This document shows positions 10,214-53,020 of a DNA stretch of 64,000 nt, one piece after another (position 1 is the first letter of the stretch; every line of letters starts with the position of its first letter). Location: positions 7,778-71,777 of the forward strand of contig CAMOSH010000001.1 in the NCBI GenBank assembly GCA_946624575.1. The letters run 5' to 3'. Made by a program: the position numbers and the translations under genes. The notes beneath the pieces were generated by a model. That model saw only the letters and a program-made list of their open reading frames with translations. It did not search any database and was not told the origin of the DNA. Origin of the DNA: an uncultured Verrucomicrobiota bacterium. Its GTDB lineage: Bacteria; Verrucomicrobiota; Kiritimatiellia; RFP12; UBA3636.

Positions 10214-12235
10214 CTACCTGCGGCCCAGGCGGCGTTCGACGTCGCCAAGCGGGTAGTGTACCATTGTGGGTCGTCCTCCCGGCGTGGCGTATGGTTGGCG
10301 GCAGGAGGCCAATTCCAGCAGGAGCGTTTCGATTTCGCGGGGATCGGCCAATTTGAGTGATCGGCCGGCTTCGCGCGCCGCGATTACGGCGATTCTTTCT
10401 TCGCGCCAGCGTTCGCGTCCGCGTTTCGGGCCGGCTTCCGCGAATGCGCGCGCCGTTTCCTCCAGTAGCATTCTGGCGTCGGCTTCGCACGCCGCGTCCG
10501 GCAGGGCGCGCACCACGAATGTGTCGCCGCCGAAATCCTCGATGTCGAAACCCATCGATTCGAAAACCGGCAGCAGCGAACGGACGCGCTGGGCGTCGAG
10601 CGGCGGCAGCTGCACCGTCTGCGGCAGCAGAAGCGCCTGGGATGCGCTTTCGTCCGACGACGTCATGTGCATGAGTCGCTCGTACGCTATGCGCTCGCGT
10701 GCCGCCGCTGGATCCACGACCGCGAATCCGCCGCCGGGGGTTTCCACCAGAATGTATCCGGAGCGCAATTGCCCGATGAGCCTGAATGCCGACGCAAGCC
10801 CTGAATGCCGCCGCTGCGGTGTCGGCGCGGCGGGAGCCGCTGCGGTATCGGCGCCGGCGGGAATTCCGGCGGGGGTGTTGTCGGGGCGGCGCGTTCCGGT
10901 CGGCAGAAACGTTGTGTCGTCGACCGGGGTGAAGAATGTCTGGATGGGCGGCGGCGCGAGCGCAATCGGCGGTGCCGGGGGGCGAAGCGGCGGCGCCGCC
11001 GGGATTTCGGAATTGGCGGGGGTGGAAATCTGGAGCGGATGCTCCCCCCTGGCGACATTGGCGCCGGGTGTCGCCGGCCTCTCGCGCGGCAGCGCCGGCG
11101 GGGGCGGGGCGGGGTGGGGCGGCAAAGGCGATGGCCGGACTGGCGGCGGCGCGGGAACTGCGGCCGCGGCGGCCGCCGAACCGGCCGCGAAGGTGCCGCC
11201 TCGAAAATCGGCCCCGGTGGGCTCCGCGTCCGGCTCGGCGCCGCGCAGCGCGAGCGCCAGCGCGGCGAGGACTGCGTCGCGGACCGCCGCCGCGGCGCGA
11301 AAGCGGACTTCGCGCTTTGCGGGATGCACGTTGACGTCCACCTGCGACCCCGGGACGTCGATGAAAAGAAACACCACGGGGCGGCGCCCCGCCGGAAGGC
11401 GCTGGTAGGATTCGCGGATGGCGGCCTGGACTATCGGCGCAGTGGCGGGGCGCCCGTTTATGAAGACGTACTGCCCGGCAGTGTCGCCGCGCGTGTTGTC
11501 CGGCCTTCCCGCCCAGCCGCTCACACGGATGTCGCCATCGGCGTGTTCGACCGGGAAGAAGCGCGAAAGGAAACCGGTTCCGAAAAGTGCCTCGATGCGT
11601 TCGCCGCGGCTTGACGCAGCCTGAAGGCGGCTCACGGCGTCGCCGTCGCACACAAGTTCCATCGCCACGTGCGGCCAGGCGATCGCATGGACCAGAAACT
11701 GCGCGCGGACATGCGCCTGCTCCGTGGCGTAGGACCTTAAAAACGCGCGTCTGGCCGGGAGATTGTAGAAAAGGTCGCGCACTTCGACGCAGGTGCCGGG
11801 CGGGGCGCCGCAATCGGACACGTCCGCAAGAACCCCGCCGTTGATTTCGACGCGCGTTCCTGCGGAGTCTCCGGCTCGCCGGGTCACGAGCATGAACCGC
11901 GAGACGGACGCGATCGAGGGGAGTGCCTCGCCGCGAAAGCCCATCGTCTCGATGGACTCGAGGTCCTCGGCCCTGCGCAGCTTGCTCGTGGCCTGGCGCT
12001 GGGGCGCCAGCAGCGCGTCGTCGCGGTTCATTCCGCAGCCGTCGTCGGACACCGACACCAGGCGCCGCCCGCCTGCCACGATCGTCACGCGAATGCGCCT
12101 GGCCCCGGCGTCAAGAGCGTTTTCCAGAAGCTCCTTGACGACTGACGCCGGCCGCTCCACCACCTCGCCGGCGGCGATTTTGTTCGCCACGTCCTCCGGC
12201 AGGAGGCGTATCACGGAACCGGCGGCGTCTGGCAT
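10214..12235 (-). CDS. mutL: DNA mismatch repair protein MutL
   Basis: N-terminal IRLLPEDVANKIAAGEVVERPASVVKELLENALDAG GHKL ATPase signature. Pro/Ala-rich linker and C-terminal dimerisation domain. Confidence 0.85.
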   Translation of the reverse strand: MPDAAGSVIRLLPEDVANKIAAGEVVERPASVVKELLENALDAGARRIRVTIVAGGRRLVSVSDDGCGMNRDDALLAPQRQATSKLRRAEDLESIETMGFRGEALPSIASVSRFMLVTRRAGDSAGTRVEINGGVLADVSDCGAPPGTCVEVRDLFYNLPARRAFLRSYATEQAHVRAQFLVHAIAWPHVAMELVCDGDAVSRLQAASSRGERIEALFGTGFLSRFFPVEHADGDIRVSGWAGRPDNTRGDTAGQYVFINGRPATAPIVQAAIRESYQRLPAGRRPVVFLFIDVPGSQVDVNVHPAKREVRFRAAAAVRDAVLAALALALRGAEPDAEPTGADFRGGTFAAGSAAAAAAVPAPPPVRPSPLPPHPAPPPPALPRERPATPGANVARGEHPLQISTPANSEIPAAPPLRPPAPPIALAPPPIQTFFTPVDDTTFLPTGTRRPDNTPAGIPAGADTAAAPAAPTPQRRHSGLASAFRLIGQLRSGYILVETPGGGFAVVDPAAARERIAYERLMHMTSSDESASQALLLPQTVQLPPLDAQRVRSLLPVFESMGFDIEDFGGDTFVVRALPDAACEADARMLLEETARAFAEAGPKRGRERWREERIAVIAAREAGRSLKLADPREIETLLLELASCRQPYATPGGRPTMVHYPLGDVERRLGRR

Positions 12236-12244
12236 CGCGGCGGC

Positions 12245-12787
12245 TCAGAGCCCGAGCAGTCGGGCGACTTCCGGGTCCTTGGCGCGGACTTCGTCCGGCG
12301 TCAGCCCCATCAGTTCGTGAGGGAACACAAGCCAGGCGTCCGTCTCGCGCAGGTAGTATTCCGGCTTGAAGGGCCAGCGGCTGCGCGCGGGCTTGTAGTA
12401 GAGCGTCGCGAACCGCAGATCCTTCACGAACGGGCGAAACGCCTCCTTGACCGCGGCCACGGTGTCGCCGCTGTCGAAGATGTCGTCCACGACAAGCACC
12501 CTTTCGGCCGCGCGAAGATGGTCGATCACGGCGCCGAGATTGTCGATCACCGGATGCTTGTGGGTCCCGATCCCGGTGTACGCCTGCGTCTTGATCGCGG
12601 TGTGCCAGCACTCGACGCCGAGATAGTGGAGAAACTCCTGCACGGCGACTGCGACGGGCGTGCCGCCGCGCCACAGCCCTATCACCACGTCCGGCCTGAA
12701 GCCGTCGTCGTAGATCTTGCGCGCCAGTGCGAAACTGTCGCGCGTCAGCCCGTTGGAGTCCAGGAATATCTTGCCGTCCATTTCCAC
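12245..12787 (-). CDS. purine phosphoribosyltransferase (XPRT/HGPRT-like, type I PRTase)
   Basis: PRPP-binding motif VLVVDDIFDSGDT. 180 aa. Ends 10 bp upstream of the mutL start, so probably co-transcribed. Confidence 0.6.
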   Translation of the reverse strand: MEMDGKIFLDSNGLTRDSFALARKIYDDGFRPDVVIGLWRGGTPVAVAVQEFLHYLGVECWHTAIKTQAYTGIGTHKHPVIDNLGAVIDHLRAAERVLVVDDIFDSGDTVAAVKEAFRPFVKDLRFATLYYKPARSRWPFKPEYYLRETDAWLVFPHELMGLTPDEVRAKDPEVARLLGL

Positions 12788-26336: not shown

Positions 26337-27782
26337 TCAGCCGCGTTCGCCGTTTCCGGCCATGCGGATCCGGGGATCGAGCCAGGCGTTGAGAAGGTCG
26401 GCCGCCAAATTGGAAAGCTGGTACAGGAGCGCCGAAATCAGGACGACCGCGCGTACCGTGGCGTAGTCGGCCGCGTACACGGCATCCAGTCCGATTCCGC
26501 CGAGCCCCGGCAGCCCGAAGAAGCTTTCCAGGAGGATGCTGCCAGTGAAAAGAAAAGGCACGGAAAGGCTGGCGTTCGTCACCACCGGCACCATCGAGCC
26601 GCGAAGCACGTGGACGAACAGCACACGCGCCGGCGAAAGTCCCTTCGCAATTGCGGTGCGCACATATGGCTTGCGGATTTCGTCCAGCACCACGGTGCGG
26701 TAGAAGCGGACGTCGCTGCCGAGCCCGCTGACGATTCCTATGATCGCCGGAAGAAGCAGGTACGTCCAGTTCTCGAATCCCCATATTGGAAACAGCCTCC
26801 AGCGGAAGGCCAGAAGGTACTGCCCGGCGGAAACCCAGATCACGTAGTTGACGCTCATGAGCGCTGTGGTGAAGGCCAGCGCCGCGCGGTCGAGCCAGCG
26901 CCCCGCCGCTGCCGCGGCCACGAGTCCCACGAGCAGCGCCAGCGTCGTGCCGAGCACGAGTATCGGCACCGTGAGGCAGAGCGAGACCCCGACGCCCTGT
27001 CGGAGCACCTCCCACACGGGCTGGCGCCACTGGAGCGATTCGCCGAAATCCCCGTGTGCCAGGTCGCGCAGATAGGCGAGGTACTGCACCGCGAGCGGCC
27101 TGTCCCAGCCATGCGCGTGGTCGTACTCTGCAAGCTGCTCGGCCGTGGCGTTCTTGCCTAGCACCTGCGCCGCGGGGGAGCCGCCGATGACGTTGAACAG
27201 CACGAAAGTCAGCAGTGTGACGCCTAAAAGCGTCGGTATCATCTGCAGTAGCCTGCGGACGACGTGGCGCCATGTGGAGGCGCGGCGCGGCGCCGCGCCG
27301 CGACTGCCGCCGGCCGTCGAAAGCCCGGCAATCCCGGTCTCGTCGACGAAGACGGCGTCTGGAAACGCGGCGGCGGCCGCCGCCGCCCAGGCTCCCGGGG
27401 CCCTGCGGCCGGTTTCGCCGCCGTCCTCGCGGTGCAGCGGCGCGGCCAGTCCGCAGCTCGGCGATCCGCTTTTCAGCAGAAATGCGTCGGGTGCTCCCTC
27501 CTGGCGGAATTTAGCAATCCTGGCGTCGCACGCGGCGCGGAGCGCGTCCGTGACATCCGCCGAGCGGTCAACGCGCTTGACGAGCGGCGCGGCATCGACG
27601 TCCCGCCCCTCCGCTTCCACGAGTTCGATGGGCGGGCGCGGGACTCCGAATCCTGCCGCGCATTCGGGGCAGAACTCCACGATTTCGGCGTCGGCGGGCA
27701 GCGCGTCCAGATTGGCCGGCCTGGAATCGCCCTTCCAGCGGCAGGCCCGGCCCGCCAGGCAGGCGCTCACGCAGATTTTCAC
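26337..27782 (-). CDS. DUF523-domain fused in frame to a DppB/OppB-type ABC permease
   Basis: GTG start at 27782 (MKICVSACLAGRACRWKGD, the DUF523 signature) with a GGAGAAGGAAGG SD. After about 150 aa there is no stop and the frame continues into a 6-TM binding-protein-dependent permease (LLQMIPTLLGVTLLTF..., EAA-loop IAKGLSPARVLFVHVLRGSMVPVVT). Confidence 0.55.
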   Translation of the reverse strand: MKICVSACLAGRACRWKGDSRPANLDALPADAEIVEFCPECAAGFGVPRPPIELVEAEGRDVDAAPLVKRVDRSADVTDALRAACDARIAKFRQEGAPDAFLLKSGSPSCGLAAPLHREDGGETGRRAPGAWAAAAAAAFPDAVFVDETGIAGLSTAGGSRGAAPRRASTWRHVVRRLLQMIPTLLGVTLLTFVLFNVIGGSPAAQVLGKNATAEQLAEYDHAHGWDRPLAVQYLAYLRDLAHGDFGESLQWRQPVWEVLRQGVGVSLCLTVPILVLGTTLALLVGLVAAAAAGRWLDRAALAFTTALMSVNYVIWVSAGQYLLAFRWRLFPIWGFENWTYLLLPAIIGIVSGLGSDVRFYRTVVLDEIRKPYVRTAIAKGLSPARVLFVHVLRGSMVPVVTNASLSVPFLFTGSILLESFFGLPGLGGIGLDAVYAADYATVRAVVLISALLYQLSNLAADLLNAWLDPRIRMAGNGERG

Positions 27783-29470
27783 GTTTGGCCCCCTTCCTTC
27801 TCCGCCGCGAGGCAACCGCGCTCGGCGTCCGGGACCGGTGCGTTGGAGGCGTACAGTTTTCGCGAAATCGCGTATTGCGCCACCGGTGCCTCCAGAAGCT
27901 CCGGGGCTTCGTCGCCGGCGGCGAGTCTGGCGCGTGCCTCCGTGGAGGAAACGTCAACCGCCAGTTCCGGGGAGAAGGCGCATGCAAGCCGCGCGTTTAC
28001 GACAGGGTCGAATCCGAGCGAGTCGCGGTCGATCGTCGTGCCGGGCCTGCCAAAGGAGACGACGCGGCACATGCGCACAAGTCTTGCGGCTTCGCGCCAT
28101 TTGTGGAAATCGCGCAGCGAATCTGCGCCAAGCAGGAAAAACCATTGCGCATCCCGGGGACCGTTGCGGCGCAACGCCTCCAGCAGCTCCACGGTGTACG
28201 ATATCCCGCCGCGCAGGATGTCGGTTTTGTCGATCGCGAAACGCGGCTCGGACGCGATGGCGCGCCGGAGCATGGCGACGCGGTCGGCGGCCGGCGTCGC
28301 CGCGCCGCGTCCGGTCTTGAAGGGGGAAATCGCGGTCGGCACGAAAAGGACGCGGTCGAGGCCCCAGCGTTCAAGCGCGGCGCGCGCCAGCGCCAGGTGC
28401 CCGCGGTGCACGGGGTCGAACGAGCCGCCGAAGACGCCGATGCGCGGCTGCGGCGGCAACGGCGGCGTGCTCCGCGCCGCCGGGTTCCCGGCCGCGCCTT
28501 CGGCCGCGCTGGCGGCGATTGCCGCGTCTATTGCCGTAAGCGTCACTTTCTCTGGATCCGCGCCAGATGCGTAAAGCGCCGCTGCGGCGCGCCGGCGCGC
28601 GAGCGCGGGGGCGCCGGGATCAGGAACCTCGGGCCGTCCGGACGATGCCATGAGGTCGAGCGCGTCTGCATCGTCGCGCAGGACGTCGAGCGTACGCCCC
28701 AGCGTTTCCGGGAACGACTTTCCGCAGGCGCGGATGGCTGCGGGCATGAGCCAGTGGCGAATTCTGTTTCTGTCCGCGGCGCCGGGGTCGGCGTTGGTGG
28801 CGTCTTCGCGCCAGACTATGCCCTGCGCTCGAAGCCACTCGCAAAGCGTCTCGTGGCGAAGCCGCAGAAACGGCTTGAGGAAGACCGGCGCGGTGGCGTC
28901 CGATGCGTCTGGGAGCGAAACCGGGCGCATCCCCGCGAGTCCGCGCAGCGAGGCGCCGCGAGAGAGGCGCAGGAAAAAGAGTTCGGCCTGGTCGTCGAGC
29001 GTGTGCGCAGTTGCGATCGCGGCCGCGCCGCAGGCCGCGGCGGTTTCGACGAGAAACGTGCGCCGCAGCCGCCGCGCCGCCATCTCCAGGGATTCTCCGG
29101 TTTTTTCAGCTTCCGCCGCGGGCGAGCCGCGCCCCGCGACGAAACGGATTCCAAGTTCCGCGCATTTGTCGCGGACGAGCGCTTCGTCCAGATCCGCGTC
29201 CACGGGGCGCAAGCCGTGGTTGTAATGCGCGGCGACCACGGGCGGCGCCCCTGGTTTGCCTCGCCAAAGCCAGCGCCGGATCAGATCGATCGAGCAGAGC
29301 AGGGCCATCGAGTCCGCCCCGCCGGAAACCGCCACCACGAGCGGGTCGCAACGCAACGCGGCCCCTAGCGCTGTCGACCCCCATGGTGCGGGGGCCAGCA
29401 GCTGCGTGGACGGAAGAAGTGGAGTTGGACGGGACATTTTCGGTTGGTCGCGACGGCGGCATTTTTCCAT
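27779..29470 (-). CDS. tRNA(Ile)-lysidine synthetase fused to nicotinate-nucleotide adenylyltransferase (TilS-NadD)
   Basis: N-terminal PP-loop LVVAVSGGADSMALL (TilS). After about 340 aa comes RIGVFGGSFDPVHRGH, and near the C-terminus VSSTEARARL (the NadD HxGH and ISSTxIR motifs). No stop or Met between domains, only a possible TTG. The stop abuts the downstream GTG start. Confidence 0.6.
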   Translation of the reverse strand: MEKCRRRDQPKMSRPTPLLPSTQLLAPAPWGSTALGAALRCDPLVVAVSGGADSMALLCSIDLIRRWLWRGKPGAPPVVAAHYNHGLRPVDADLDEALVRDKCAELGIRFVAGRGSPAAEAEKTGESLEMAARRLRRTFLVETAAACGAAAIATAHTLDDQAELFFLRLSRGASLRGLAGMRPVSLPDASDATAPVFLKPFLRLRHETLCEWLRAQGIVWREDATNADPGAADRNRIRHWLMPAAIRACGKSFPETLGRTLDVLRDDADALDLMASSGRPEVPDPGAPALARRRAAAALYASGADPEKVTLTAIDAAIAASAAEGAAGNPAARSTPPLPPQPRIGVFGGSFDPVHRGHLALARAALERWGLDRVLFVPTAISPFKTGRGAATPAADRVAMLRRAIASEPRFAIDKTDILRGGISYTVELLEALRRNGPRDAQWFFLLGADSLRDFHKWREAARLVRMCRVVSFGRPGTTIDRDSLGFDPVVNARLACAFSPELAVDVSSTEARARLAAGDEAPELLEAPVAQYAISRKLYASNAPVPDAERGCLAAEKEGGQT

Positions 29471-29476
29471 CGGGTG

Positions 29477-32400
29477 CTACCTTGCGCGTCTGCGGCGGAT
29501 TTTCTCCGCGAGCGCTGCCGCGGTCAAGACCATTGCCGCAAGCAGTGAGATCCCGCGCCCGACGCGCTCTGATTTCAGCGGCTTGCGGCGAAGTACTATT
29601 TCGCTGGCGCCGGGAGCGGGGCGAACTGCCATTTGGCCCCAGGGCAGGACGCCGATCGCGGCCGCGCCATCGGCCTCCCATCCGGGATCCGCCGTCACGG
29701 CCAGCGCGATCCAACGGCCGGAATCCGCGTCTGCCGGCAAATGCACCTCGACTGTGCCTGATGCTGAGTCGAGCGTTGCGTCCTGAATCCAGCCGTCGCG
29801 CGGCGCGGGTGGCGCTTTGCCCCGATTCCACCAGTCCGCGACGATGCGCTGCGGATTGCGCAGGGAGCTGGGCGATGGCAGCTCGTCCGGAACCGCGCCG
29901 CGCGGCAGCACCCGTGCGAGTCCGGGATCTTCCAGTCCAGATTCGTACACGCGCCAGGGGCCGGTGGAGGCGATCAGCCGCCACTGGCCGTCCGCTTCAA
30001 TGGCGTCCTGGACGCGCGCCGAGCGTGCCACGAATGAGCGAACCCCGAGCGCTTCGAGTCTGCGCAGTCCAAGCGCGGGGTCTTTGGGCAGCGGGCGCAC
30101 GAGAAGCGGCCAGCCCGTGGTGTCGTCGGACATCTGGCTTTGAGTGGAGTGCGCGGCTATAGCGCCAAGCGCTCCGTTTACCAGCCCTCCGGCCAGTGTT
30201 CTGGTTCCTGGCGCGAGGTAAGGCAGCGCCTCGAATGCGCGCGCCGAACCCAGGGCCTCGTTTCCTTCATGATGATCCCATGCGATCGCGCCCGGACGGC
30301 CGGCGACCGTCGCGGCGATGAGGCGCAGCGCGTCGGCGTCGGGCATCGCCTCGAATCCGCGAAATGCGCTTTGCGCCCAGGGACCCACCAGGCATTCGCG
30401 CGCCCAGCGTGGTTGTGCCGCGCCTCCGTTCCCTGTCGCGTCTTCGGGGATTTCGCGCCAGGCGAACGACGCCGCCAGCGCGGCGAGCGCGAGCGCCGTG
30501 GGCGTTTCGATCCGGAAAACGGCCGCCGCGCGGCCGGCGCCTATCGCGCACAGCGCCAATGCGGAGAAAACAGCGAACGGCCAAAGCCGGCAATTCACGA
30601 AGACGTCCGACAGGGCGCGCCCCCAGGCGAAAAGCGCCGCGGACGCGATCAGCATCGCGGTCGCGACGAACGCCGCCGCCGCCAGTGCTCCGCCGCCGCA
30701 AGCGCCACCCTTGGCCCGCTTTCGCGATGCGACGAGCGACAGCGCGAACACAAGCGCGGTCGCGCAGACGAATGTCGGATTCAATGCCGGCGGGAGCTGC
30801 TTCAGGACTTCGACGTTCCATTGTTCGCCATAGTCGACCGACCAGCCGCGCGTTGCGGCTAGCGGCAGCGTCCAGAATGCGCACAGTGCTCCGGCCGTCG
30901 CGCCTTCTGCGCACAGCGTCGCGGCCGCCGTGCGCCTGCGCAGCGCGGCAAGCGCCGCCGCGTACGCCAGTAGCGCCGTCGCGACGATCAGCGCCGCGAA
31001 GAAATGGCAAAGCGCCAATGCTGCGAACACCAGCGCGGACACGGCGGAGAAGCGTCCGCGCGATGCGTCGCGCAGGGCCAGGCCCAGGGCGATCGGCATC
31101 AGCGCGAACGACCAGGCGTTGGCGATCATGCCAGACAGCGCGCTGTAGGCGTTGCCACCCCACATCGTGTGCGAGTTGTCGAGCGCCACCGGAAGCGCGG
31201 CCGCGGCCAGAAGCGCGGGAACCGGGCGCGGCAGGCGCGCCAGACGGCCTCCGAGCCACGCGCAAAGAGGCAGCGCCGCAACTGGCAGCGCGATCGCCAG
31301 CGCAAGCGCGGTGTTGTGTCCGATCGCCCTGGAGGCCACGGCCGTCACGGCGTACGGAAGCGGGAAGTAATACCGAAACGCGGGAAATCCGCACCACCAC
31401 GCGCTTTCCCAGCCGAAGATGCGCCCGGTTTCGGCGATTCGCGCGACGAGGACGTTGTGCGCGGCAAGATCGCCTGCGACCGGGGTGCCGGCGCCAAGCG
31501 CAAGCCACATGTTCAGCATTTGCGCCAACCACAGCGAAAGCACTGCGGCCACTGCGAACCCGGTCCAGTCGCGTCCGGGTGCGGCGCCGTCGCGGCGGCG
31601 CCGCCGGAACGGAACCGTCGCCGCAAGTGCCAGCGCGAAAATCACGGCGGCGGCAAATGGCGGCGGCCTCCGCGCCGGCGCCGGAAATCCGGAAGCGTCC
31701 CGCGCGAACGCGACGGGCACCGCCGCATATTCGCACCAGCGCAATTCGGGCGCGGTCCCTTCGGCGGTTTCGACTGCGATTCGCACGGAGCCGCGCATGC
31801 CGAACGCCGAGCTCCTGCGCAGCGCGATCGTCTTTTCTGCGCGTCCGCGAGCCGGCGCTTTGATGACAAAGCGATCGGCGCCTGGATCCCGGACTCCGCA
31901 GCCGCTGGGCGTCAGCATCCGGCAGTCCAGCGCCAGTTCGGCGTCAGCTAGCGACTGGATCGCGACGACTATCGACGCGTCGGCGCGCGCTTCGTCCCGC
32001 GCGTCGCCCGTGGCGTCGCCAGGTACGAGCGACGCCTGCATGGAAAAGGCCTGAACGGCGGCGGCCGATCCGGAGGTTTGCGGCCACAGCCTAGTGCACG
32101 ACCAGGCGCGCGCGTCGTAGCCGTCCAGATCGACGCCCGTCGCGCGCAGCGCGTGCAGTTGCGGTCCGCGGCCTTCGGGGGCCTCCGCCTGGAACACGCC
32201 GCCCGTTTCCGCGCCGGGCGGAAGCCAGGTGCACTCGAATACGCGGCGCGCCGCACCGGATCCGGTGGCGACGCCGCTAAAGGCGTCCAGGGCCACGCGC
32301 TCCACTGGCGTCGCGCCGCGATTTGCCACGCGCCATGGAATGCTGGACGAGCCGCGCCGCACGGGGCCGACGGCCACGGCAAGCGGCGCGGTGGCTTCTG

Positions 32401-32512
32401 CCCCCGCCGCCTTCGGCACCGACAGCGCGGAGCAGAGAAGAGTCGTCGCCCAGGCCGCGACGGCAAGCGCGCGTTTCACGGCGCGCCGGCCGAAACGGCC
32501 CATTTCAGGCAT
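29477..32512 (-). CDS. large polytopic membrane protein of unknown function
   Basis: 1011-aa ORF with N-terminal signal/TM, soluble N-domain, central block of about 12 TM helices (FGWESAWWCGFPAFRYYFPLPY region), and soluble C-domain. No confident family call. Confidence 0.35.
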   Translation of the reverse strand: MPEMGRFGRRAVKRALAVAAWATTLLCSALSVPKAAGAEATAPLAVAVGPVRRGSSSIPWRVANRGATPVERVALDAFSGVATGSGAARRVFECTWLPPGAETGGVFQAEAPEGRGPQLHALRATGVDLDGYDARAWSCTRLWPQTSGSAAAVQAFSMQASLVPGDATGDARDEARADASIVVAIQSLADAELALDCRMLTPSGCGVRDPGADRFVIKAPARGRAEKTIALRRSSAFGMRGSVRIAVETAEGTAPELRWCEYAAVPVAFARDASGFPAPARRPPPFAAAVIFALALAATVPFRRRRRDGAAPGRDWTGFAVAAVLSLWLAQMLNMWLALGAGTPVAGDLAAHNVLVARIAETGRIFGWESAWWCGFPAFRYYFPLPYAVTAVASRAIGHNTALALAIALPVAALPLCAWLGGRLARLPRPVPALLAAAALPVALDNSHTMWGGNAYSALSGMIANAWSFALMPIALGLALRDASRGRFSAVSALVFAALALCHFFAALIVATALLAYAAALAALRRRTAAATLCAEGATAGALCAFWTLPLAATRGWSVDYGEQWNVEVLKQLPPALNPTFVCATALVFALSLVASRKRAKGGACGGGALAAAAFVATAMLIASAALFAWGRALSDVFVNCRLWPFAVFSALALCAIGAGRAAAVFRIETPTALALAALAASFAWREIPEDATGNGGAAQPRWARECLVGPWAQSAFRGFEAMPDADALRLIAATVAGRPGAIAWDHHEGNEALGSARAFEALPYLAPGTRTLAGGLVNGALGAIAAHSTQSQMSDDTTGWPLLVRPLPKDPALGLRRLEALGVRSFVARSARVQDAIEADGQWRLIASTGPWRVYESGLEDPGLARVLPRGAVPDELPSPSSLRNPQRIVADWWNRGKAPPAPRDGWIQDATLDSASGTVEVHLPADADSGRWIALAVTADPGWEADGAAAIGVLPWGQMAVRPAPGASEIVLRRKPLKSERVGRGISLLAAMVLTAAALAEKIRRRRAR

Positions 32513-44133: not shown

Positions 44134-44679
44134 CTAGCGCGCCCAGGCGAGGACTTCGGCCGATAGCGGCGAAACCGCCTCGATCGAAATCTCCTCTTCG
44201 GTGAATTCGCCGTCGAAATCGGGATCGGGCAGCTGCACCACGCAGACCTGCCCGGCGCGGGCGCCCTCGACGGCGCGTGCAAGCGGCGCCCGCCGGGAGA
44301 CTATTCCAAGAGCCTCGTCGCCGTCCCAGTCGCCCAGAATCGAGATTGTGCGCGTGGTGCCGTCCGAGTAGCGTATCGACACGGACGACCCCGGTCCCGC
44401 GACGCCCTCCGGCGGCGTGTAGGCCGAGAAATCGAACACCGTCATCGACTGGAGCTCCTCGCGGAGCCGCGTCTGGCGCTCGATCAGCTGGCGTTCGCGG
44501 TTGCGGGCGCTTTCATATTCGAAGTTTTCCGACAGGTCGCCGAATTCCTTGGCTTCCTGGATGTCGCGCCTGTTGCGCGGCATCTCCTCGTTGACTATTT
44601 TGTCCAGCTGCGCCTTCCGCGCCCGGTATCCGCGCGCGGATGTCGCCCGTTCGGGCAGCGTGGTCAGCTGCGCGTCCAT
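44134..44679 (-). CDS. greA: transcript cleavage factor GreA/GreB family
   Basis: Coiled-coil tip FGDLSENFEYESAR (compare GreA HGDLKENAEYHAAR) and C-terminal FKBP-like domain. 181 aa. Confidence 0.65.
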   Translation of the reverse strand: MDAQLTTLPERATSARGYRARKAQLDKIVNEEMPRNRRDIQEAKEFGDLSENFEYESARNRERQLIERQTRLREELQSMTVFDFSAYTPPEGVAGPGSSVSIRYSDGTTRTISILGDWDGDEALGIVSRRAPLARAVEGARAGQVCVVQLPDPDFDGEFTEEEISIEAVSPLSAEVLAWAR

Positions 44680-47303
44680 TCCACGATCTCCTGGGGCAGG
44701 GGCTCAATGGAAACGACCGTGGCGGCAAGCGCCTCGTCGCCGTCGGACGGGATTTCGACCTTGTCGCCGACGCGATGGTCCATGACGGCACGCGCGACCG
44801 GGGTCTTGAACGAGACTATGCCCAGCTCCGGCGCGCTGTCCCATTCGCCGAGAAGCGCGTACGACTTGCGGGCGCCGTCCGCGAATTCCAGCGTCACGTA
44901 GGATCCCAGGCCGGCGAGTTCGATCTCGGCGTCGCCCTCCTGGGCGAAATCGAATGCCGAAACGCGCTTGAGATCCGCTTCCAGCTGCTGCTGGCGCGCG
45001 ACGAGTTCGCGCTCCTTGGCGCGGGCGCTTTCGTACTCGAAGTTTTCGGAAAGGTCGCCGAAGCCCTTGGCAAATTCGATGTCCTTGCGGTTCTGCGGCA
45101 TCTCCACGTCCATCAGATGGCGGTATTGCGCCTGGCGCTCGCGGATCGAGCGGATCGACGAGACGTTTTCAGCGGTTTCGCCGCGCGCCGGGGCGGGACG
45201 TTCCGCCGGAACCGAATCCTGAAGATCGGGGAACTTTGCGAGGAGGTTGGCAATGAGGTGCCGCTTCTTCAGCGGTTCCCAGATGCCTTCCATTCCCTGA
45301 AGCCGGATAAACACGGACGCGCGGCTTTCGTGGTCCATCTTCTCCATGAGCGGGAAGAGCCACTTGCACCCTTCGTCGATTTCGGCGGCAATCTTCGACG
45401 CGGCCGAAGTGTCGCGCCGGCCGGACACGAACAGCTTGCGTATGTCGTTCTTCATGCGGAGATTCTCCTTCTCCGCCTGGAAGCCGAGGGCGATGCTGGC
45501 CGTGGTGACGATCGCGTACGGGGAGACAACCTCGAAGAGCGCCTCGGAAAGCTTCGCGGATGCGGCCGCGTGGCATATCCAGCGCAGCAGCGGCATCGAA
45601 AGGCCGGGGGTGCCGCGCCTTGCGGCCGGGTACCGCCCGTCGTCCGCCGCGCCGTCCGCCTCGACGTATTCGGCGTCGTCTTCGACCGGGGCCTCCGGAT
45701 TGTGGATGCGGCCCTGCGCGAACTGTTCGCGAATCTTGGCCGCGAACGCATCCTTCGCGGGTCCGGAGAGAAGCTTCGGCGCGATGTGCTCGACGAGATT
45801 GGCGGTCATGTACGGAACCGCCTCGACGAAGCGCGACGCGACTTCAGTATCCTTGTCCAGCGGAATCGCCGCCAGAAGCGCCTCCATCTGGCCGGCCGGC
45901 AGCGTCTTCGATGCGTCCAGCACGACGAGCGGCTTGCAGAGTGTGCCCGCGGGATCGACGGCGGAGCACGTGTCGTCCGTGAACGCGAACGATTCGAGCA
46001 GGTCGTAGCGTGTGGACTCGTTCACGAGCAGCGGCACCGGGAGAGACGAGAGCCCGGCCTTGAGCGCCAGCAGGAGCGCCTGGACTTTGGCGCGGTTGCC
46101 GAGTTTGCGGTCTGCCACGGACGCCTTGACCACGAACGCGAGCCTGTCGCGAATCGCGGCGGCGGTCTCCGCCGGAAGCTTGTCGGCCGGCGTCGCCTGA
46201 AGCCAGGCCGCGGTCTGGTCGAGGATGAACTTGGCGTCGCGGCTCGCCACGAAGTCGCGCAGCGTCTTGTCCGCCTGCGCGGCGGCGTGGGTTTCGGCGC
46301 TGCCTGACCGCACCAGTTCCACCGGTGCGGTCTTCTTAACGGCCGGGGGCAGCACTACCATCGGATCCTTCGAGAGCTGGGCGCGCGCCTTGGTCCAGAA
46401 CGCCTTCCACTCCGTTCCGGCCGGCAGAAGCTTGAGTTCGGTGAAGATCGTCTCGATGCGGCCGGGCGTCATGTCGCCCCACGACTTGAGCGCGAGCTTC
46501 ACGACTTCGCCGGGATTTTCCGCGATCTGCTTGTCGAACGCGGCCGGGTCCGCGTGCCTCACGGAAAGCAGGTGTTCGGGGCCGATGAACGAAAGCGAGT
46601 CCACCGCGAACGCGAAGCCGAGGTCGCGGACCTTGTCCGGCTCCGAGTCGAATTTGACGCCGACAGTGCGGTAGAAGTCGTCTTCCCGCTCCACGATTCC
46701 GTAGCCGCGGACCTTGTCGGCCACCACCGTTCCGGGTTTGAGCGCCAGCAGAAACGCCAGTCGGTCGAGCGCGGCCACCGGCGGCTTGCGCCCAAGCCCC
46801 GACGACTCTATCTTGGCCGCGACGAGACGGTCCTTCGTGGCCGATGCGAGCAGGGCGGCGCATTCGTTGCCGTACGCGATGCGATTGCCCGTCCAGCGCG
46901 CCTTGAGGCGCAGCAGTCGCGCCAGCGAGACGATGTCGTGCATGTCGACGAAGCGCTGCTCGGCCACGAGGAACGCCTGGTCGCGGTATTGCTGCTCCTG
47001 CTGGTTCTTCGAATCGTTGAGGAGAAGCGCCAGATCGTGCATCCAGCCGAGGATTTTTGCCGCGTCTGGCACGGGGCGTTCTGCCTCGGTGACCACGAGA
47101 GCGCAGAGATCTGTTGTCGAAAGTGCGGAATTTGCTGGAGTTTCGTCGGACATGGCGCGGGCTTTCCTGGACTGATTCCGCGGCGCGTCGGGATTTGCGC
47201 CGGGAAAAAAAGGGATTTCGGGTTGTTCACCCGATGCGACGCGCGGAGGATACCACAATCCCCGCCGGAATGAAACGGAAAATTTCCGGCTCGCGTTTTT
47301 CAA
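44664..47303 (-). CDS. large GreA-domain protein: roughly 640-aa N-terminal domain of unknown function fused to a complete GreA module
   Basis: C-terminal 170 aa: IRERQAQYRHLMDVEMPQNRKDIEFAKGFGDLSENFEYESARAKERE... plus an FKBP-like domain. The N-terminal region has no recognisable family. Probable start at MSDETPAN (47153). 16-bp overlap with the downstream greA paralog. Confidence 0.5.
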   Translation of the reverse strand: MKNASRKFSVSFRRGLWYPPRVASGEQPEIPFFPGANPDAPRNQSRKARAMSDETPANSALSTTDLCALVVTEAERPVPDAAKILGWMHDLALLLNDSKNQQEQQYRDQAFLVAEQRFVDMHDIVSLARLLRLKARWTGNRIAYGNECAALLASATKDRLVAAKIESSGLGRKPPVAALDRLAFLLALKPGTVVADKVRGYGIVEREDDFYRTVGVKFDSEPDKVRDLGFAFAVDSLSFIGPEHLLSVRHADPAAFDKQIAENPGEVVKLALKSWGDMTPGRIETIFTELKLLPAGTEWKAFWTKARAQLSKDPMVVLPPAVKKTAPVELVRSGSAETHAAAQADKTLRDFVASRDAKFILDQTAAWLQATPADKLPAETAAAIRDRLAFVVKASVADRKLGNRAKVQALLLALKAGLSSLPVPLLVNESTRYDLLESFAFTDDTCSAVDPAGTLCKPLVVLDASKTLPAGQMEALLAAIPLDKDTEVASRFVEAVPYMTANLVEHIAPKLLSGPAKDAFAAKIREQFAQGRIHNPEAPVEDDAEYVEADGAADDGRYPAARRGTPGLSMPLLRWICHAAASAKLSEALFEVVSPYAIVTTASIALGFQAEKENLRMKNDIRKLFVSGRRDTSAASKIAAEIDEGCKWLFPLMEKMDHESRASVFIRLQGMEGIWEPLKKRHLIANLLAKFPDLQDSVPAERPAPARGETAENVSSIRSIRERQAQYRHLMDVEMPQNRKDIEFAKGFGDLSENFEYESARAKERELVARQQQLEADLKRVSAFDFAQEGDAEIELAGLGSYVTLEFADGARKSYALLGEWDSAPELGIVSFKTPVARAVMDHRVGDKVEIPSDGDEALAATVVSIEPLPQEIVEWTRS

Positions 47304-47357
47304 GGCGATTTCGGGGCGAAGCCCCCTTCGCCGCTGCGGCGGTCGCGCCCCGGTTCT

Positions 47358-50023: not shown

Positions 50024-50893
50024 TCACCGAATAATGGAAGGGGGTGCGGGGATTTTTCTGCGAAAACGCGCTTCGGCGCGCCGCACGCCGGGGCGCAGGT
50101 GTCGCGCGGCGGCGCATGCGCCCGCGAACGCGGCCGCCGCGAACGCAATCGGCGCCGAGGGGGGAAAGTCCATTTTCCAGCTCGCCGCCAGCCCGATGCA
50201 CATGGACGCGAATGCGATGATGCCGGAGGCGACCATCATGCCGGGCAGGGTGCGCGAAAACGACTTCGCCGCAAGCGAAGGAAGCACTAGCAGGGCAACC
50301 ACGAGCACTACTCCGGTGACGCGCACGAGCACCACGACGGCAAGCGCCGCGGAAACGGAAAATACAGTTTCGTAGAGGCGTTCCGGCGCCCCGCGCAGAC
50401 GCGCGGTCTCCGGCGAGAAGGACACGGCGAGAAGCCCGCGCCAGAAAAGCGGCACCGCGATCGCCAGCGCTGCGTCCAGCGCCGCCATCCGCGCCAGGTC
50501 CCCGGGCGTCGCGAAAAGAAGCGATCCGAAAAGATACGACGCCAGGTCGCCCTTGAATCCCGGCGTTGCGGCCAGAAACGCCAGCCCCGTCGCCATCCCC
50601 AGCGCCCAGATCGCGGACAGTTCGGCGTCCGATCCCCGGGTGCGGTCTCCGGTGCGCAGCGCGAGCGCGAGGGCCGCGACCAGCGCCGCCGCGAGCGCGC
50701 CGAGGTCCGGCGTGGCCCAGGCGCATCCGCGCGACCACGACAGCCACTGCGCCGCGCCAAGCCCCGCAAAGCAAGCGTGCGCCACCGACCCGGCCACGTA
50801 CGAACTGCGCCGCGCGACGCAGAGCGGTCCCACGAACGCGCACGCGACCGCGGCTAGCGCCGAGGCGCAGACCGGTAGGAGCATGAAGTTCAT
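50024..50893 (-). CDS. metal (Zn/Mn-type) ABC transporter permease, ABC-3 family
   Basis: MNFMLLPVCASALAAVACAFVGPL... has 8-9 TM helices typical of ZnuB/MntB. The ATG overlaps the ATPase stop (ATGA). The N-terminal part of the track ORF is noise. Confidence 0.6.
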   Translation of the reverse strand: MNFMLLPVCASALAAVACAFVGPLCVARRSSYVAGSVAHACFAGLGAAQWLSWSRGCAWATPDLGALAAALVAALALALRTGDRTRGSDAELSAIWALGMATGLAFLAATPGFKGDLASYLFGSLLFATPGDLARMAALDAALAIAVPLFWRGLLAVSFSPETARLRGAPERLYETVFSVSAALAVVVLVRVTGVVLVVALLVLPSLAAKSFSRTLPGMMVASGIIAFASMCIGLAASWKMDFPPSAPIAFAAAAFAGACAAARHLRPGVRRAEARFRRKIPAPPSIIR

Positions 50894-51546
50894 GTGACGG
50901 CGGAATCCGAAACTACCGTGCCGCGATCTAGCCGCACGACGCGCGTCGCAACCGCGCGCACGAAGCCTTCGTCGTGCGTGGAAAACACGATCACGCGACC
51001 GTCGGACGCGTCGGCGCTCGCGAGCATCGCGGAAAGCTGGGCCATTCCCTCGGCGTCCAACCCGGCTGCGGGGTCGTCGAGTAGCAGCACCTGAGGTTCG
51101 TCGAGCAGGGCCTCCGCCAGGCATGCGGTCTTGCGCTGGCCTCCGGAAAGCGCCGAAACCGGAGTCCCCAGCAGGGCCGAGATCCTGCAGAACGCGGCGA
51201 CTTCTCGCACGCGGCGCCGAAGCCTCCGCGCCGGCATCCGCCTGAGTTTCCCGCGGAAGCGCAGCCATTCGCGTATTGTCAGGTCCGGGTCCGCAGGGGC
51301 GCCTTCGGGCACGTAGCCCGTGATCGCGCGCACCAGCTCCGGACTCGAAAATGCGTCGATCCCGTCCACCGCAATGCTTCCCGAATCCGGCGGCAGGACC
51401 GTCGCGAGTATCCGTAGCAGCGTGGTCTTGCCTGCCCCGTTGCGGCCCACGAGCGCGATGCGTTCGCCCGCCACGGCGCGCAGCGTCACGCGTTGCAGCG
51501 CCCGCGTCTTGCCGAAATGGCGGCAGATGTCAACGGCTTCGATCAT
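50890..51546 (-). CDS. ABC transporter ATP-binding protein (ZnuC-like)
   Basis: Walker A GRNGAGKTTLL, signature LSGGQRK, Walker B LLLDDPAAGLD, H-loop STHD. Probable start MIEAVDICRHFG at 51546. Confidence 0.7.
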   Translation of the reverse strand: MIEAVDICRHFGKTRALQRVTLRAVAGERIALVGRNGAGKTTLLRILATVLPPDSGSIAVDGIDAFSSPELVRAITGYVPEGAPADPDLTIREWLRFRGKLRRMPARRLRRRVREVAAFCRISALLGTPVSALSGGQRKTACLAEALLDEPQVLLLDDPAAGLDAEGMAQLSAMLASADASDGRVIVFSTHDEGFVRAVATRVVRLDRGTVVSDSAVT

Positions 51547-51550
51547 CGCT

Positions 51551-53020
51551 TCAGGCTCCGGGTTCCGGATGCGTCGCCGTGAGCTGTTCGGCATTTGCAG
51601 GAGTCTGATTGGCGCCGGCGGCCAGCCGCGCGAGGGAGCGACGTTCGCGCAGGACCGGCGGCATGGAGGCCACGAACGCGATGAAGTCCGACACCGGCAG
51701 CGCCAGCCAGGTTCCCAGCAGCGGATGGGACGGCATCAGCAGCGGCAGTACCCATACGCACGGCAGCAGGACGACCACCTGACGCAGCAGCGAAAGCAGG
51801 ATCGCGGTGCGCGGGCGCCCGACGGACTGGAAGTATGTGGATGCCGATACGTTGAGCGCGATGCACCATGTCATGCAGCAGCCGACGCGCAATGCGAAGC
51901 TTCCGGCGCGCAGGACGTCCGGGTCGTTCGCGAAGCCGCGGGCGATCGCCGGCGCGAAAATCTCCGGCACGACCGTGGAGAAAATCACGGTGACGCTGGT
52001 GAGAAGAAACGCCAGATCCCAGGCACGGCGGACGCGCATGTAGTTCTTCGCTCCCCAGTTGTATCCGAGTATCGGGCCTATGCCGTGCTGGACGCCCATC
52101 GATGGCATGAAAAAGAGCATCATCGCGGTCTGGTAGATACCGAAGGCGGCCACCTGCGCGGTGCCGACTTGCGGCGACGGGCTCCAGCGGGCGAAGGCGT
52201 GGTTGAGCGAAAAGTTGATGGACGATCCGGCCAGCTGCATCAGGAACGGCGCGAGCCCGATCGAGAGTACCCGCGCGGCGAGCGCGCCGCGCACCCGCAC
52301 CTGCCTCAGGCAAAGCTTGACTACCGAGCGCCCGCGCACGTAGTGCGAAAGCGCCATGGCGCACGAGGCCGTCATGGCGATGTTCGTGGCCCACGCCGCT
52401 CCGGCGACGCCCCAGCCGAATCCGAAGATGAACAGAGGGTCGAGCACTATGTTGACGAGCGCCCCCACGACCATGCAGCGCATCGCCGAGACGGGCGACC
52501 CCTCCGCGCGCATGCAGGCGGAGAGTCCGAAGGCGAGATGCGCCAGAAAATTGAACGGCAGCACTATGCGCAGGTACTGGACGCCGGCTGCGAGCGTTTC
52601 CTCCGTCAGGCGCCCTCCACCGATGGACCGCAGTATCGGGGCCAGAAACGCGAAAAGCGCCGGCGCCACGGTGATTCCCAGCAGCAGCTTGAGGGCCACG
52701 CACTGCCCAAGTGCTCGCTCGGCCGTTTCATGGTCCTTCTCGCCCAGGGAAATCGAAATCACGGTGCTTGAACCGACTCCGATGAGCGGCCCGAACGCGC
52801 CCAGCACCATCATCACGGGAAACGTGAGAGCGAGTCCCGCTATCGCGTCCGCCCCGCAGCCGTGGCCGATGTATATCCGGTCCACGACATTGTAGAGCAT
52901 GTTCAGCGTCATCGTGACGAGCGACGGCCAGGCAAAACGCCACAGGAGCGGCAGCAGCCGCCCGGACCCCATGTCCCCGAGCCGTGCGTCCTGCGATTTT
53001 TCGCTCATCGCCGATGGCAT
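51551..53020 (-). CDS. MATE family efflux transporter
   Basis: 12 predicted TM helices. N-terminal LLWRFAWPSLVTMTLNMLYNVVDRIYIGHG matches the MATE/NorM signature region. Confidence 0.75.
   Translation of the reverse strand: MPSAMSEKSQDARLGDMGSGRLLPLLWRFAWPSLVTMTLNMLYNVVDRIYIGHGCGADAIAGLALTFPVMMVLGAFGPLIGVGSSTVISISLGEKDHETAERALGQCVALKLLLGITVAPALFAFLAPILRSIGGGRLTEETLAAGVQYLRIVLPFNFLAHLAFGLSACMRAEGSPVSAMRCMVVGALVNIVLDPLFIFGFGWGVAGAAWATNIAMTASCAMALSHYVRGRSVVKLCLRQVRVRGALAARVLSIGLAPFLMQLAGSSINFSLNHAFARWSPSPQVGTAQVAAFGIYQTAMMLFFMPSMGVQHGIGPILGYNWGAKNYMRVRRAWDLAFLLTSVTVIFSTVVPEIFAPAIARGFANDPDVLRAGSFALRVGCCMTWCIALNVSASTYFQSVGRPRTAILLSLLRQVVVLLPCVWVLPLLMPSHPLLGTWLALPVSDFIAFVASMPPVLRERRSLARLAAGANQTPANAEQLTATHPEPGA

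Follow-up and report, generated by a model that had tools for sequence, protein, structure and literature searches.

A TudS-type desulfidase domain fused in frame to a DppB-like ABC permease in a small clade of uncultured Kiritimatiellia

The locus

A 64,000-nucleotide stretch of the genome of an uncultured bacterium of the class Kiritimatiellia (Verrucomicrobiota; contig CAMOSH010000001.1), hereafter the window, carries a gene in which a TudS domain (formerly DUF523) is joined in frame to a transmembrane subunit of the DppB/OppB type of ATP-binding cassette (ABC) importers. Both halves belong to known families, and their combination is an undescribed domain architecture. The product consists of the TudS domain (aa 3–144, PF04463), a linker (aa ~145–171) and the permease (aa 172–474, including the EAA loop), and the same 481-aa sequence is found in records from three sources, NCBI, Logan and ENA. 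The coordinates of the gene, its parts and the surrounding features are given in table 1.

The frame is open from the GTG start to the TGA stop, which bears out the initial annotation of a GTG-initiated DUF523 module reading in frame, through a short Gly/Ala linker, into a permease; the linker at aa ~145–171 is of Gly/Ala/Arg composition. An in-frame TTG upstream, at 27815, is a possible alternative start. The GTG is preferred because it corresponds to the homologous start in relatives, because the TudS domain begins no more than three residues further on, and because it is preceded by the Shine–Dalgarno-like GGAAGGGGG and forms part of the GTGA shared with the preceding gene. That annotation had correctly placed the gene directly after a TilS–NadD gene but described the junction as TGA followed by GTG, where the stop and start codons in fact overlap. 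As read from the sequence, this overlap implies that translation of the fusion gene would be coupled to that of tilS–nadD. Past the TudS start, the first in-frame start codon in the window is that of M182, inside the first transmembrane helix (TM1), and the two valines preceding TM1 are encoded by GTC. Since in-frame starts are absent between the TudS start and M182, the permease of this lineage can be produced solely as a fusion.

Table 1. Features of the fusion gene and its surroundings, in window coordinates
Feature	Coordinates	Strand	Details and basis
TudS–linker–DppB-like permease fusion coding sequence	26337..27782	minus	481 aa, GTG start, TGA stop
TudS [4Fe-4S] desulfidase domain (DUF523, PF04463), aa 1–144	27351..27782	minus	Pfam, alignment to PDB 6Z92
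TudS Cys ligands C8, C38, C110	27759–27761; 27669–27671; 27453–27455	minus	alignment to 6Z92
Linker, aa 145–171, FVDETGIAGLSTAGGSRGAAPRRASTW	27270..27350	minus	short helix, then disordered Arg-rich stretch ahead of TM1
DppB/OppB-type ABC importer transmembrane subunit, aa 172–481 and stop	26337..27269	minus	Pfam, Foldseek
EAA/coupling-helix loop, aa ~366–395, ABC ATPase docking site	26598..26687	minus	alignment to E. coli DppB
Shine–Dalgarno-like GGAAGGGGG	27789..27797	minus	6 nt 5′ of GTG, read from sequence
GTGA start/stop overlap of fusion gene with tilS–nadD	27779..27782	minus	4 nt
TilS (PP-loop lysidine synthetase)–NadD (nicotinate-nucleotide adenylyltransferase) fusion	27779..29470	minus	563 aa; Pfam, NCBIfam
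PTPS_related (PF10131) large membrane protein	29477..32512	minus	1011 aa; ends 6 nt before tilS–nadD
Sole ABC ATPase of the window	50890–51735	minus	GldA/DrrA ABC-2 exporter type, 23 kb from fusion, beside MatE gene

The TudS head

The N-terminal domain was initially annotated as DUF523. The family assignment holds, but its naming as a domain of unknown function is outdated: DUF523 is now TudS, a [4Fe-4S] desulfidase acting on thiouracil and 4-thio-uridine monophosphate (4-thio-UMP) (PMC10611767; PDB 6Z92), and PF04463 has accordingly been renamed 2-thiour_desulf/2-thiouracil desulfurase. The head matches this profile with 86 bits against a cutoff of 34.7, aa 3–144 covering profile positions 1–137 of 141, and its only solved relatives are the TudS structures 6Z92–6ZW9 (E = 8e-11). 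In the AlphaFold2 (AF2) model, the mean predicted local distance difference test (pLDDT) value is 89 overall and exceeds 94 in the N-terminal domain, which superposes on TudS 6Z92/6Z93 in Foldseek with a TM-score of 0.79 and a root-mean-square deviation of 3.1 Å over 160 columns, at 31% identity.

The published catalytic set of TudS comprises the cluster ligands Cys10, Cys43 and Cys104 together with Glu45, Ser101 and Ser103 (PMC10611767). In the alignment to 6Z92, these residues of TudS_A correspond to C8, C38 and C110, E40, and S107 and S109 of the fusion, and all six are kept wherever the column is covered (45–46 of the 46 aligned DUF523 sequences, other fusions included). By residue conservation and by its model, the head thus looks catalytically competent and would be expected to bind a [4Fe-4S] cluster and to act as a desulfidase.

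The head therefore shares its family, its six residues and its fold with stand-alone TudS, known members of which are soluble monomers of ~150–180 aa, whereas the head described here is, according to sequence and model, covalently tethered to a membrane protein. A precedent for the recruitment of a TudS domain into a new context by a C-terminal fusion partner is provided by RudS, a TudS–DUF1722 protein that acts as a tRNA 4-thiouridine desulfidase; DUF1722 fusions account for 40.1% of the family and single-domain proteins for 58.9% (PMC11417400). DUF1722 is absent from the present fusion, in which BPD_transp_1_N and BPD_transp_1 are the only Pfam domains after TudS. Because the partner is a transmembrane ABC subunit and not an RNA-binding domain as in RudS, a tRNA substrate is not expected.

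The permease half and the tether

The initial description of the second half as a six-helix DppB/OppB-type permease with a clear EAA loop is supported by Pfam, alignment and Foldseek alike. PF19300 (BPD_transp_1_N) matches aa 172–244 with 44 bits and PF00528 (BPD_transp_1) aa 283–473 with 100 bits, and residues 172–474 align end to end with DppB of E. coli and M. tuberculosis (8Z1V/8WD9) and with OppB, starting from residue 3–4 of these proteins. The EAA loop, EIRKPYVRTAIAKGLSPARVLFVHVLRG, is well conserved and aligns with EDYIRTARAKGLTRMRVIIVHALRN of E. coli DppB. The permease model has the six-helix DppB-type fold (TM-score 0.88 to M. tuberculosis DppB, 8WD9_B), and it shares this fold, the periplasmic TM1–TM2 region and the EAA loop with the solved DppB, OppB and NikB subunits (8Z1V, 8WD9, 8J5Q, 8Z21). 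The top NCBIfam models are Opp2B, Opp3B, NikB, GsiC and DppB, the best of them, Opp2B, scoring 210 bits against a cutoff of 350. The fusion permease misses every NCBIfam equivalog cutoff and has no equivalog-level identity with a named system, and with scores so far below these cutoffs its substrate cannot be named.

Between the two domains, AF2 confidence is low at residues 158–169. From the last helix of the head (~residue 157) to TM1 (~residue 170), the disordered tether spans ~12 residues here and up to ~30 in a related locus, L001. Between relatives the linker varies in length by 18–40 aa, in frame throughout, with 19–38% identity. Its charge (6 K/R, 0 D/E) fits the cytoplasmic side, the TM1–TM2 loop carries a net excess of acidic residues and the basic EAA loop contains 8 K/R, so that the positive-inside rule is followed. 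Together with the orientation of solved DppB structures, from which the orientation itself is taken, this charge distribution points to a cytoplasmic N-terminus and a cytoplasmic Fe–S head, as raised in the initial annotation, and a head so placed would be accessible to Fe–S assembly.

A head held so close to the docking site of the ATPases could in principle be regulatory: the [4Fe-4S] domain, with its open iron site, would sense sulfide, thiols, oxygen or the Fe–S status of the cell and gate the transporter sterically or allosterically through ATPase docking at the EAA loop. The short tether does put the domain beside the cytoplasmic face where the ATPases dock, and Fe–S clusters recur in Dpp/Opp-type systems, where the solved complexes of M. 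tuberculosis and E. coli have them in the C-terminal parts of the ATPases. The strict conservation of E40, S107 and S109, and not just of the Cys ligands, nevertheless fits an enzyme better than a sensor, the ratio of non-synonymous to synonymous substitution rates (dN/dS) of the TudS domain is ordinary, and a sensory TudS is without precedent in the TudS and RudS papers (PMC10611767, PMC11417400). We consider a regulatory role improbable.

Authenticity and distribution of the fusion

The fusion is genuine and not an artefact, and it recurs in relatives, where the initial annotation had proposed to look for it. A large protein search retrieved at least four full-length or near-full-length fusion clusters besides that of the window, at 74–84% identity: P0002 is 84% identical to the window fusion and P0003 and P0004 are 74% identical, the P0004 cluster containing 20 members of 445 or 472 aa, of which the 445-aa versions are gene calls begun at an internal Met. 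A fifth cluster, clipped at contig ends, begins in the last part of the TudS domain (FPDALFLDE...) and bears the annotation 'ABC transporter permease, partial [Kiritimatiellae bacterium]' (MBR1608739.1). Contigs from other samples in which the upstream DNA is present (L001, L002 and L009, the last being contig DJYI01000121.1 of Verrucomicrobia bacterium UBA6982) likewise show TilS–NadD followed by the fusion, with a 4-nt overlap in L001 and an ATGA overlap with the TilS–NadD stop in L002 and L009. The same architecture is found in L001, L002, L009, P0003 and P0005, with linkers that differ in sequence and length and are all in frame. A frameshift or stop codon between the domains, which the initial annotation had named as the observation that would overturn the fusion, is contradicted by these in-frame, indel-tolerant junctions in independent assemblies.

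In a three-way codon alignment, dN/dS was 0.15–0.21 for the TudS domain, 0.05–0.13 for the permease and 0.24–0.49 for the linker, which contains several in-frame indels. Since synonymous divergence (dS) in the TudS and permease domains has reached 0.8–1.8, the low ratios indicate long-standing purifying selection on both domains as one frame.

In principle, two separate genes of the window genome could have been merged erroneously during sequencing or assembly, or by formation of a chimera at the GC-rich linker. The junction does lie within a GC-rich, low-complexity stretch, and one ENA contig, L095 (sample SAMN02144231), which is identical to the window over 5,188 nt up to coordinate 27283, diverges from 27282 on and ends after a further 33 nt (L095 5189–5221, equivalent to window 27250–27282). 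This 33-nt tail has no match in the window or in the JGI metagenome contigs, as is typical of a spurious contig tip, and it is regarded as such a tip, formed in the low-complexity stretch; a scan of the JGI metagenome contigs with the window's own junction also gave no match. An artefact is, moreover, difficult to reconcile with the shared architecture and differing in-frame linkers of the relatives, with the identical 481-aa protein from three sources and with the lack of a start codon for a separate permease in the window, and we regard it as highly improbable.

The fusion is restricted to one small clade of uncultured rumen and gut Kiritimatiellia. In a filter-free phmmer search of 1.84 billion representative proteins clustered at 50% identity, the best 150 matches, down to 162 bits, included only one cluster that covers both domains, that of the window itself, in keeping with the initial remark that a DUF523 head on an ABC permease is not a standard architecture. 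We think that few or no fusions exist elsewhere, since the expected score of a distant one exceeds ~200 bits and none such is among these 150 matches. The TudS and RudS papers (PMC10611767, PMC11417400) make no mention of a transporter fusion of TudS, and full-text searches for DUF523 with permease returned nothing relevant.

Several candidates for further fusions were rejected. Matches in L015, L020 and L049 begin at query residues 49–119, and tblastn found no DUF523 in these loci; in L015, the permease is of the ordinary kind (306 aa) and the small open reading frame (ORF) upstream of it is unrelated. Longer homologues (425–442, 510 and 518–747 aa) are explained by periplasmic-loop insertions, miscalled starts, fusions of B and C permeases or a weak FHA match, and none has a DUF523 domain.

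Origin of the fusion

The closest unfused relatives of the head are stand-alone DUF523 proteins with 54–60% identity. The surroundings of their genes are unrelated and differ from one another, and neither TilS–NadD nor the permease ever adjoins them. The closest unfused permeases, at 75–78% identity, are in turn never found beside DUF523 or TilS–NadD. As the unfused halves occur in unrelated contexts, the fusion is a derived, lineage-specific event and not the end point of an old operon. A relic of it is visible in some members of the clade, which retain a Met where stand-alone permeases start (...GRT-MVRYAARRIAQ in L009 and P0004, ...RRP-MLRYAARRLAQ in P0005; compare MLRYTLRRLLQ), suggesting that the linker derives from an intergenic spacer, translated once the TudS stop codon had been lost. 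Most likely, the fusion would thus have arisen by stop codon loss between two genes juxtaposed 3′ of tilS–nadD.

Transport partners and the orphan state of the permease

Canonical DppBCDF and OppBCDF operons encode a binding protein, the B and C permeases and two ATPases; such an operon is absent around the fusion in the window, and the fusion differs from the B subunits also in its N-terminal enzyme domain. Partners were sought in the 64-kb window by Pfam analysis of 27 candidate ORFs, most of them picked for high GC content at third codon positions, and by tblastn of the whole window with the partner proteins of relatives. A second BPD_transp_1 permease, a binding protein and a Dpp/Opp-type ATPase were not found, in agreement with the absence of a nearby partner permease, ATPase and substrate-binding protein noted initially, and the sole ABC ATPase of the window is of an exporter type (table 1).

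The stand-alone permeases of Kiritimatiellia (e.g. those like MBR1608739.1) are 52–78% identical to the permease half of the fusion and are often solitary as well. These headless proteins of ~306–310 aa have variable neighbours, among them an FHA–T2SSE ATPase, a 650-aa protein, a DppC-like permease, or a PotA-like ATPase with a 586–599-aa binding protein. A scan of GTDB with one genome per species yielded at least 583 loci encoding the permease family, the best 80 of which were examined; nearly all of these 80 are labelled as metagenome-assembled genomes of Kiritimatiellia, Lentisphaerae or Verrucomicrobia from guts and rumens. The window's own species is absent from these best 80 loci of at least 583, the nearest being UBA6982 at 74% identity. 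Homologues of a DppC-like permease, an ABC ATPase or the 586/599-aa binding protein were lacking in the fetched flanks of 52 of the 80, and a DppC-like gene occurred somewhere in the locus in 19 and directly downstream in nine. An orphan permease gene of this family is therefore the usual condition in Kiritimatiellia and not special to the fusion. With partner genes present but scattered in the class, those of the window protein presumably lie elsewhere in its genome.

The arrangements observed are diverse. L003 and L020 show, in order, the permease, a 415-aa protein without assignment, a PotA/PhnT2-like ATPase and a 586-aa SBP_bac_11-like binding protein, in apparent operons (L003 10001–15000; L020 3821–8774) in which a second permease was not detected and which mix a peptide-type membrane subunit with an ATPase and a binding protein of polyamine/phosphonate type. 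In L006, a 599-aa binding protein precedes the permease; similarity to SBP_bac_11/PhnS2 is weak in the binding proteins associated with close relatives. In L098 and L099, the permease is a solitary gene between genes on the opposite strand, and in L007 a DppC-like permease comes next. In the permease subgroup P0064, P0077 and P0090 (L007 8245–9543), whose members have 424–442 aa, the periplasmic TM1–TM2 loop is enlarged by an insertion of ~120 residues.

Further neighbours recur in the unfused family. An FHA–T2SSE (TadA-like) ATPase directly precedes the permease in closer unfused relatives (L003 6280–10000, L096 2256–5990, L011, L013, L016, L017, L020 and L021). In L003 and L096, where upstream genes were annotated, it is itself preceded by a GT4 glycosyltransferase and an RcpC-like gene, giving the order GT4, RcpC, FHA–T2SSE ATPase and permease; ahead of its permease part, the representative protein P0337 matches FHA weakly. 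Immediately 5′ of the permease in ~45 of the 80 loci lies a gene for a protein of ~650 aa (L047 8031–9998; L033–L086), the members of which are 50–73% identical to each other. The window lacks this protein, which has no match in Pfam, NCBIfam or the PDB and no apparent signal peptide in its N-terminal sequence. It represents an uncharacterised and strongly conserved partner of the permease family; the idea that it is a diverged binding protein was rejected, because it resembles neither the 586/599-aa binding proteins nor any entry of these databases. An Amidase_3 (N-acetylmuramoyl-L-alanine amidase) gene lies just 3′ of the permease/DppC-like pair in L047 (12365–13594, with a 169-aa ORF between) and L058 (11841–13001), which hints at a link of the transporter family to cell-wall peptides.

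Function of the fusion protein

We favour, with a probability of about 0.55, the interpretation that the protein is a catalytically independent TudS enzyme tethered to the membrane on a working permease subunit. It would form a single inner-membrane polypeptide whose N-terminal 150 residues constitute a cytoplasmic TudS-type [4Fe-4S] domain that removes sulfur from thiouracil or 4-thio-UMP, connected by a flexible, Arg-rich tether of 12–30 residues to TM1 of the DppB-type subunit. To work, the permease half would still need its partners, a DppC-like (or second) permease, ATPases and a binding protein, whose genes would lie at other sites of the genome. Most probably, each half would keep its own job, the head in the salvage and detoxification of thionucleotides from tRNA turnover and the permease in solute import, and the fusion would then merely co-express TudS with the permease and hold it at the membrane. 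Both the assembly of the transporter and the independence of the two activities are inferred. An old functional partnership appears unlikely, since unfused orthologues of each half are found in unrelated and variable contexts.

Several considerations weigh against this interpretation. Prokaryotic gene fusions unite functionally linked proteins in most cases, and the retention of this one through a dS above 1 could reflect an advantage of coupling. Tethering may not suit TudS, or it may interfere with ATPase docking, and sequence comparison does not assign the transported substrate. The tail of L095, which departs from the window 4–5 codons short of the permease part, may be the trace of a co-existing unfused strain variant.

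If the halves were coupled, the importer could take up a thiocarbonyl compound (2- or 4-thiouracil, thiouridine or a related thio-nucleoside from rumen tRNA), which the tethered TudS would desulfurate at the exit, yielding usable uracil or UMP and sulfide and avoiding the toxicity of thio-bases. By the Rosetta-stone principle, fusions generally predict functional links, and here a seemingly competent TudS lies within a 12–30-residue tether of the cytoplasmic face of a permease that, in the lineage of the window, exists solely as a fusion, and this fusion has been retained across substantial divergence. In other bacteria, TudS supports growth on exogenous thiouracil (PMC10611767, PMC11417400). 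Against such coupling, the halves are not near each other in any unfused relative examined, and permeases 60–78% identical to that of the fusion lack a TudS partner, so that the transporter role predates the fusion and has probably remained unchanged. The weakly SBP_bac_11/PhnS2-like binding proteins of close relatives do not favour it either. Dpp/Opp-type permeases are not known to import nucleobases. Import-coupled desulfuration seems rather unlikely, and the independent, membrane-tethered enzyme is preferred. Were it to occur, it would be a case without precedent to our knowledge, in which an ABC importer processes its substrate vectorially by means of an Fe–S enzyme that forms part of its transmembrane subunit.

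Gene neighbourhood

The gene upstream of the fusion encodes the N-domain of TilS (aa 44–243) and a full NadD (aa ~342–542); it is conserved in L001, L002 and L009 and always translationally coupled to the TudS–permease gene. In L002 and L009, conservation of the upstream region does not extend to the PTPS_related gene that precedes it in the window. Given the 6-nt spacing between these two genes, the overlap of tilS–nadD with the fusion gene and a convergent gene downstream, the fusion is the last gene of a probable three-gene transcription unit (PTPS_related, tilS–nadD and fusion). A scan for promoters and terminators gave one weak promoter-like site (29499–29527), and terminator-like sites were no commoner than in shuffled sequence.

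In L009 (UBA6982), the gene after the fusion (11538–12488) has Pfam matches of the ParA/CbiA/MipZ P-loop type and is not conserved in the window. Its GKGGVGKS and CPHCG motifs read like those of an Mrp/ApbC-type Fe–S cluster carrier ATPase, which would be a suggestive neighbour for an Fe–S head. Elsewhere in the window, two tandem genes of the GreA/GreB family occupy 44134–47357 on the minus strand; the upstream one is an 897-codon open frame in which the GreA domains are C-terminal only, preceded by an N-terminal extension of ~730 residues without a Pfam match.

Implications

The significance of the fusion depends on whether its halves cooperate. If they do, the TudS head would indicate the substrate class of an abundant, highly conserved but uncharacterised family of ABC permeases in gut and rumen Kiritimatiellia, and the protein would be a natural example of an enzyme wired to the exit of an importer. 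If they do not, the fusion would be a clean case of a tolerated, lineage-specific event that calls for caution in inferring function by the Rosetta-stone principle, and it would demonstrate tolerance of N-terminal tethering in a TudS domain and a DppB-type subunit alike.

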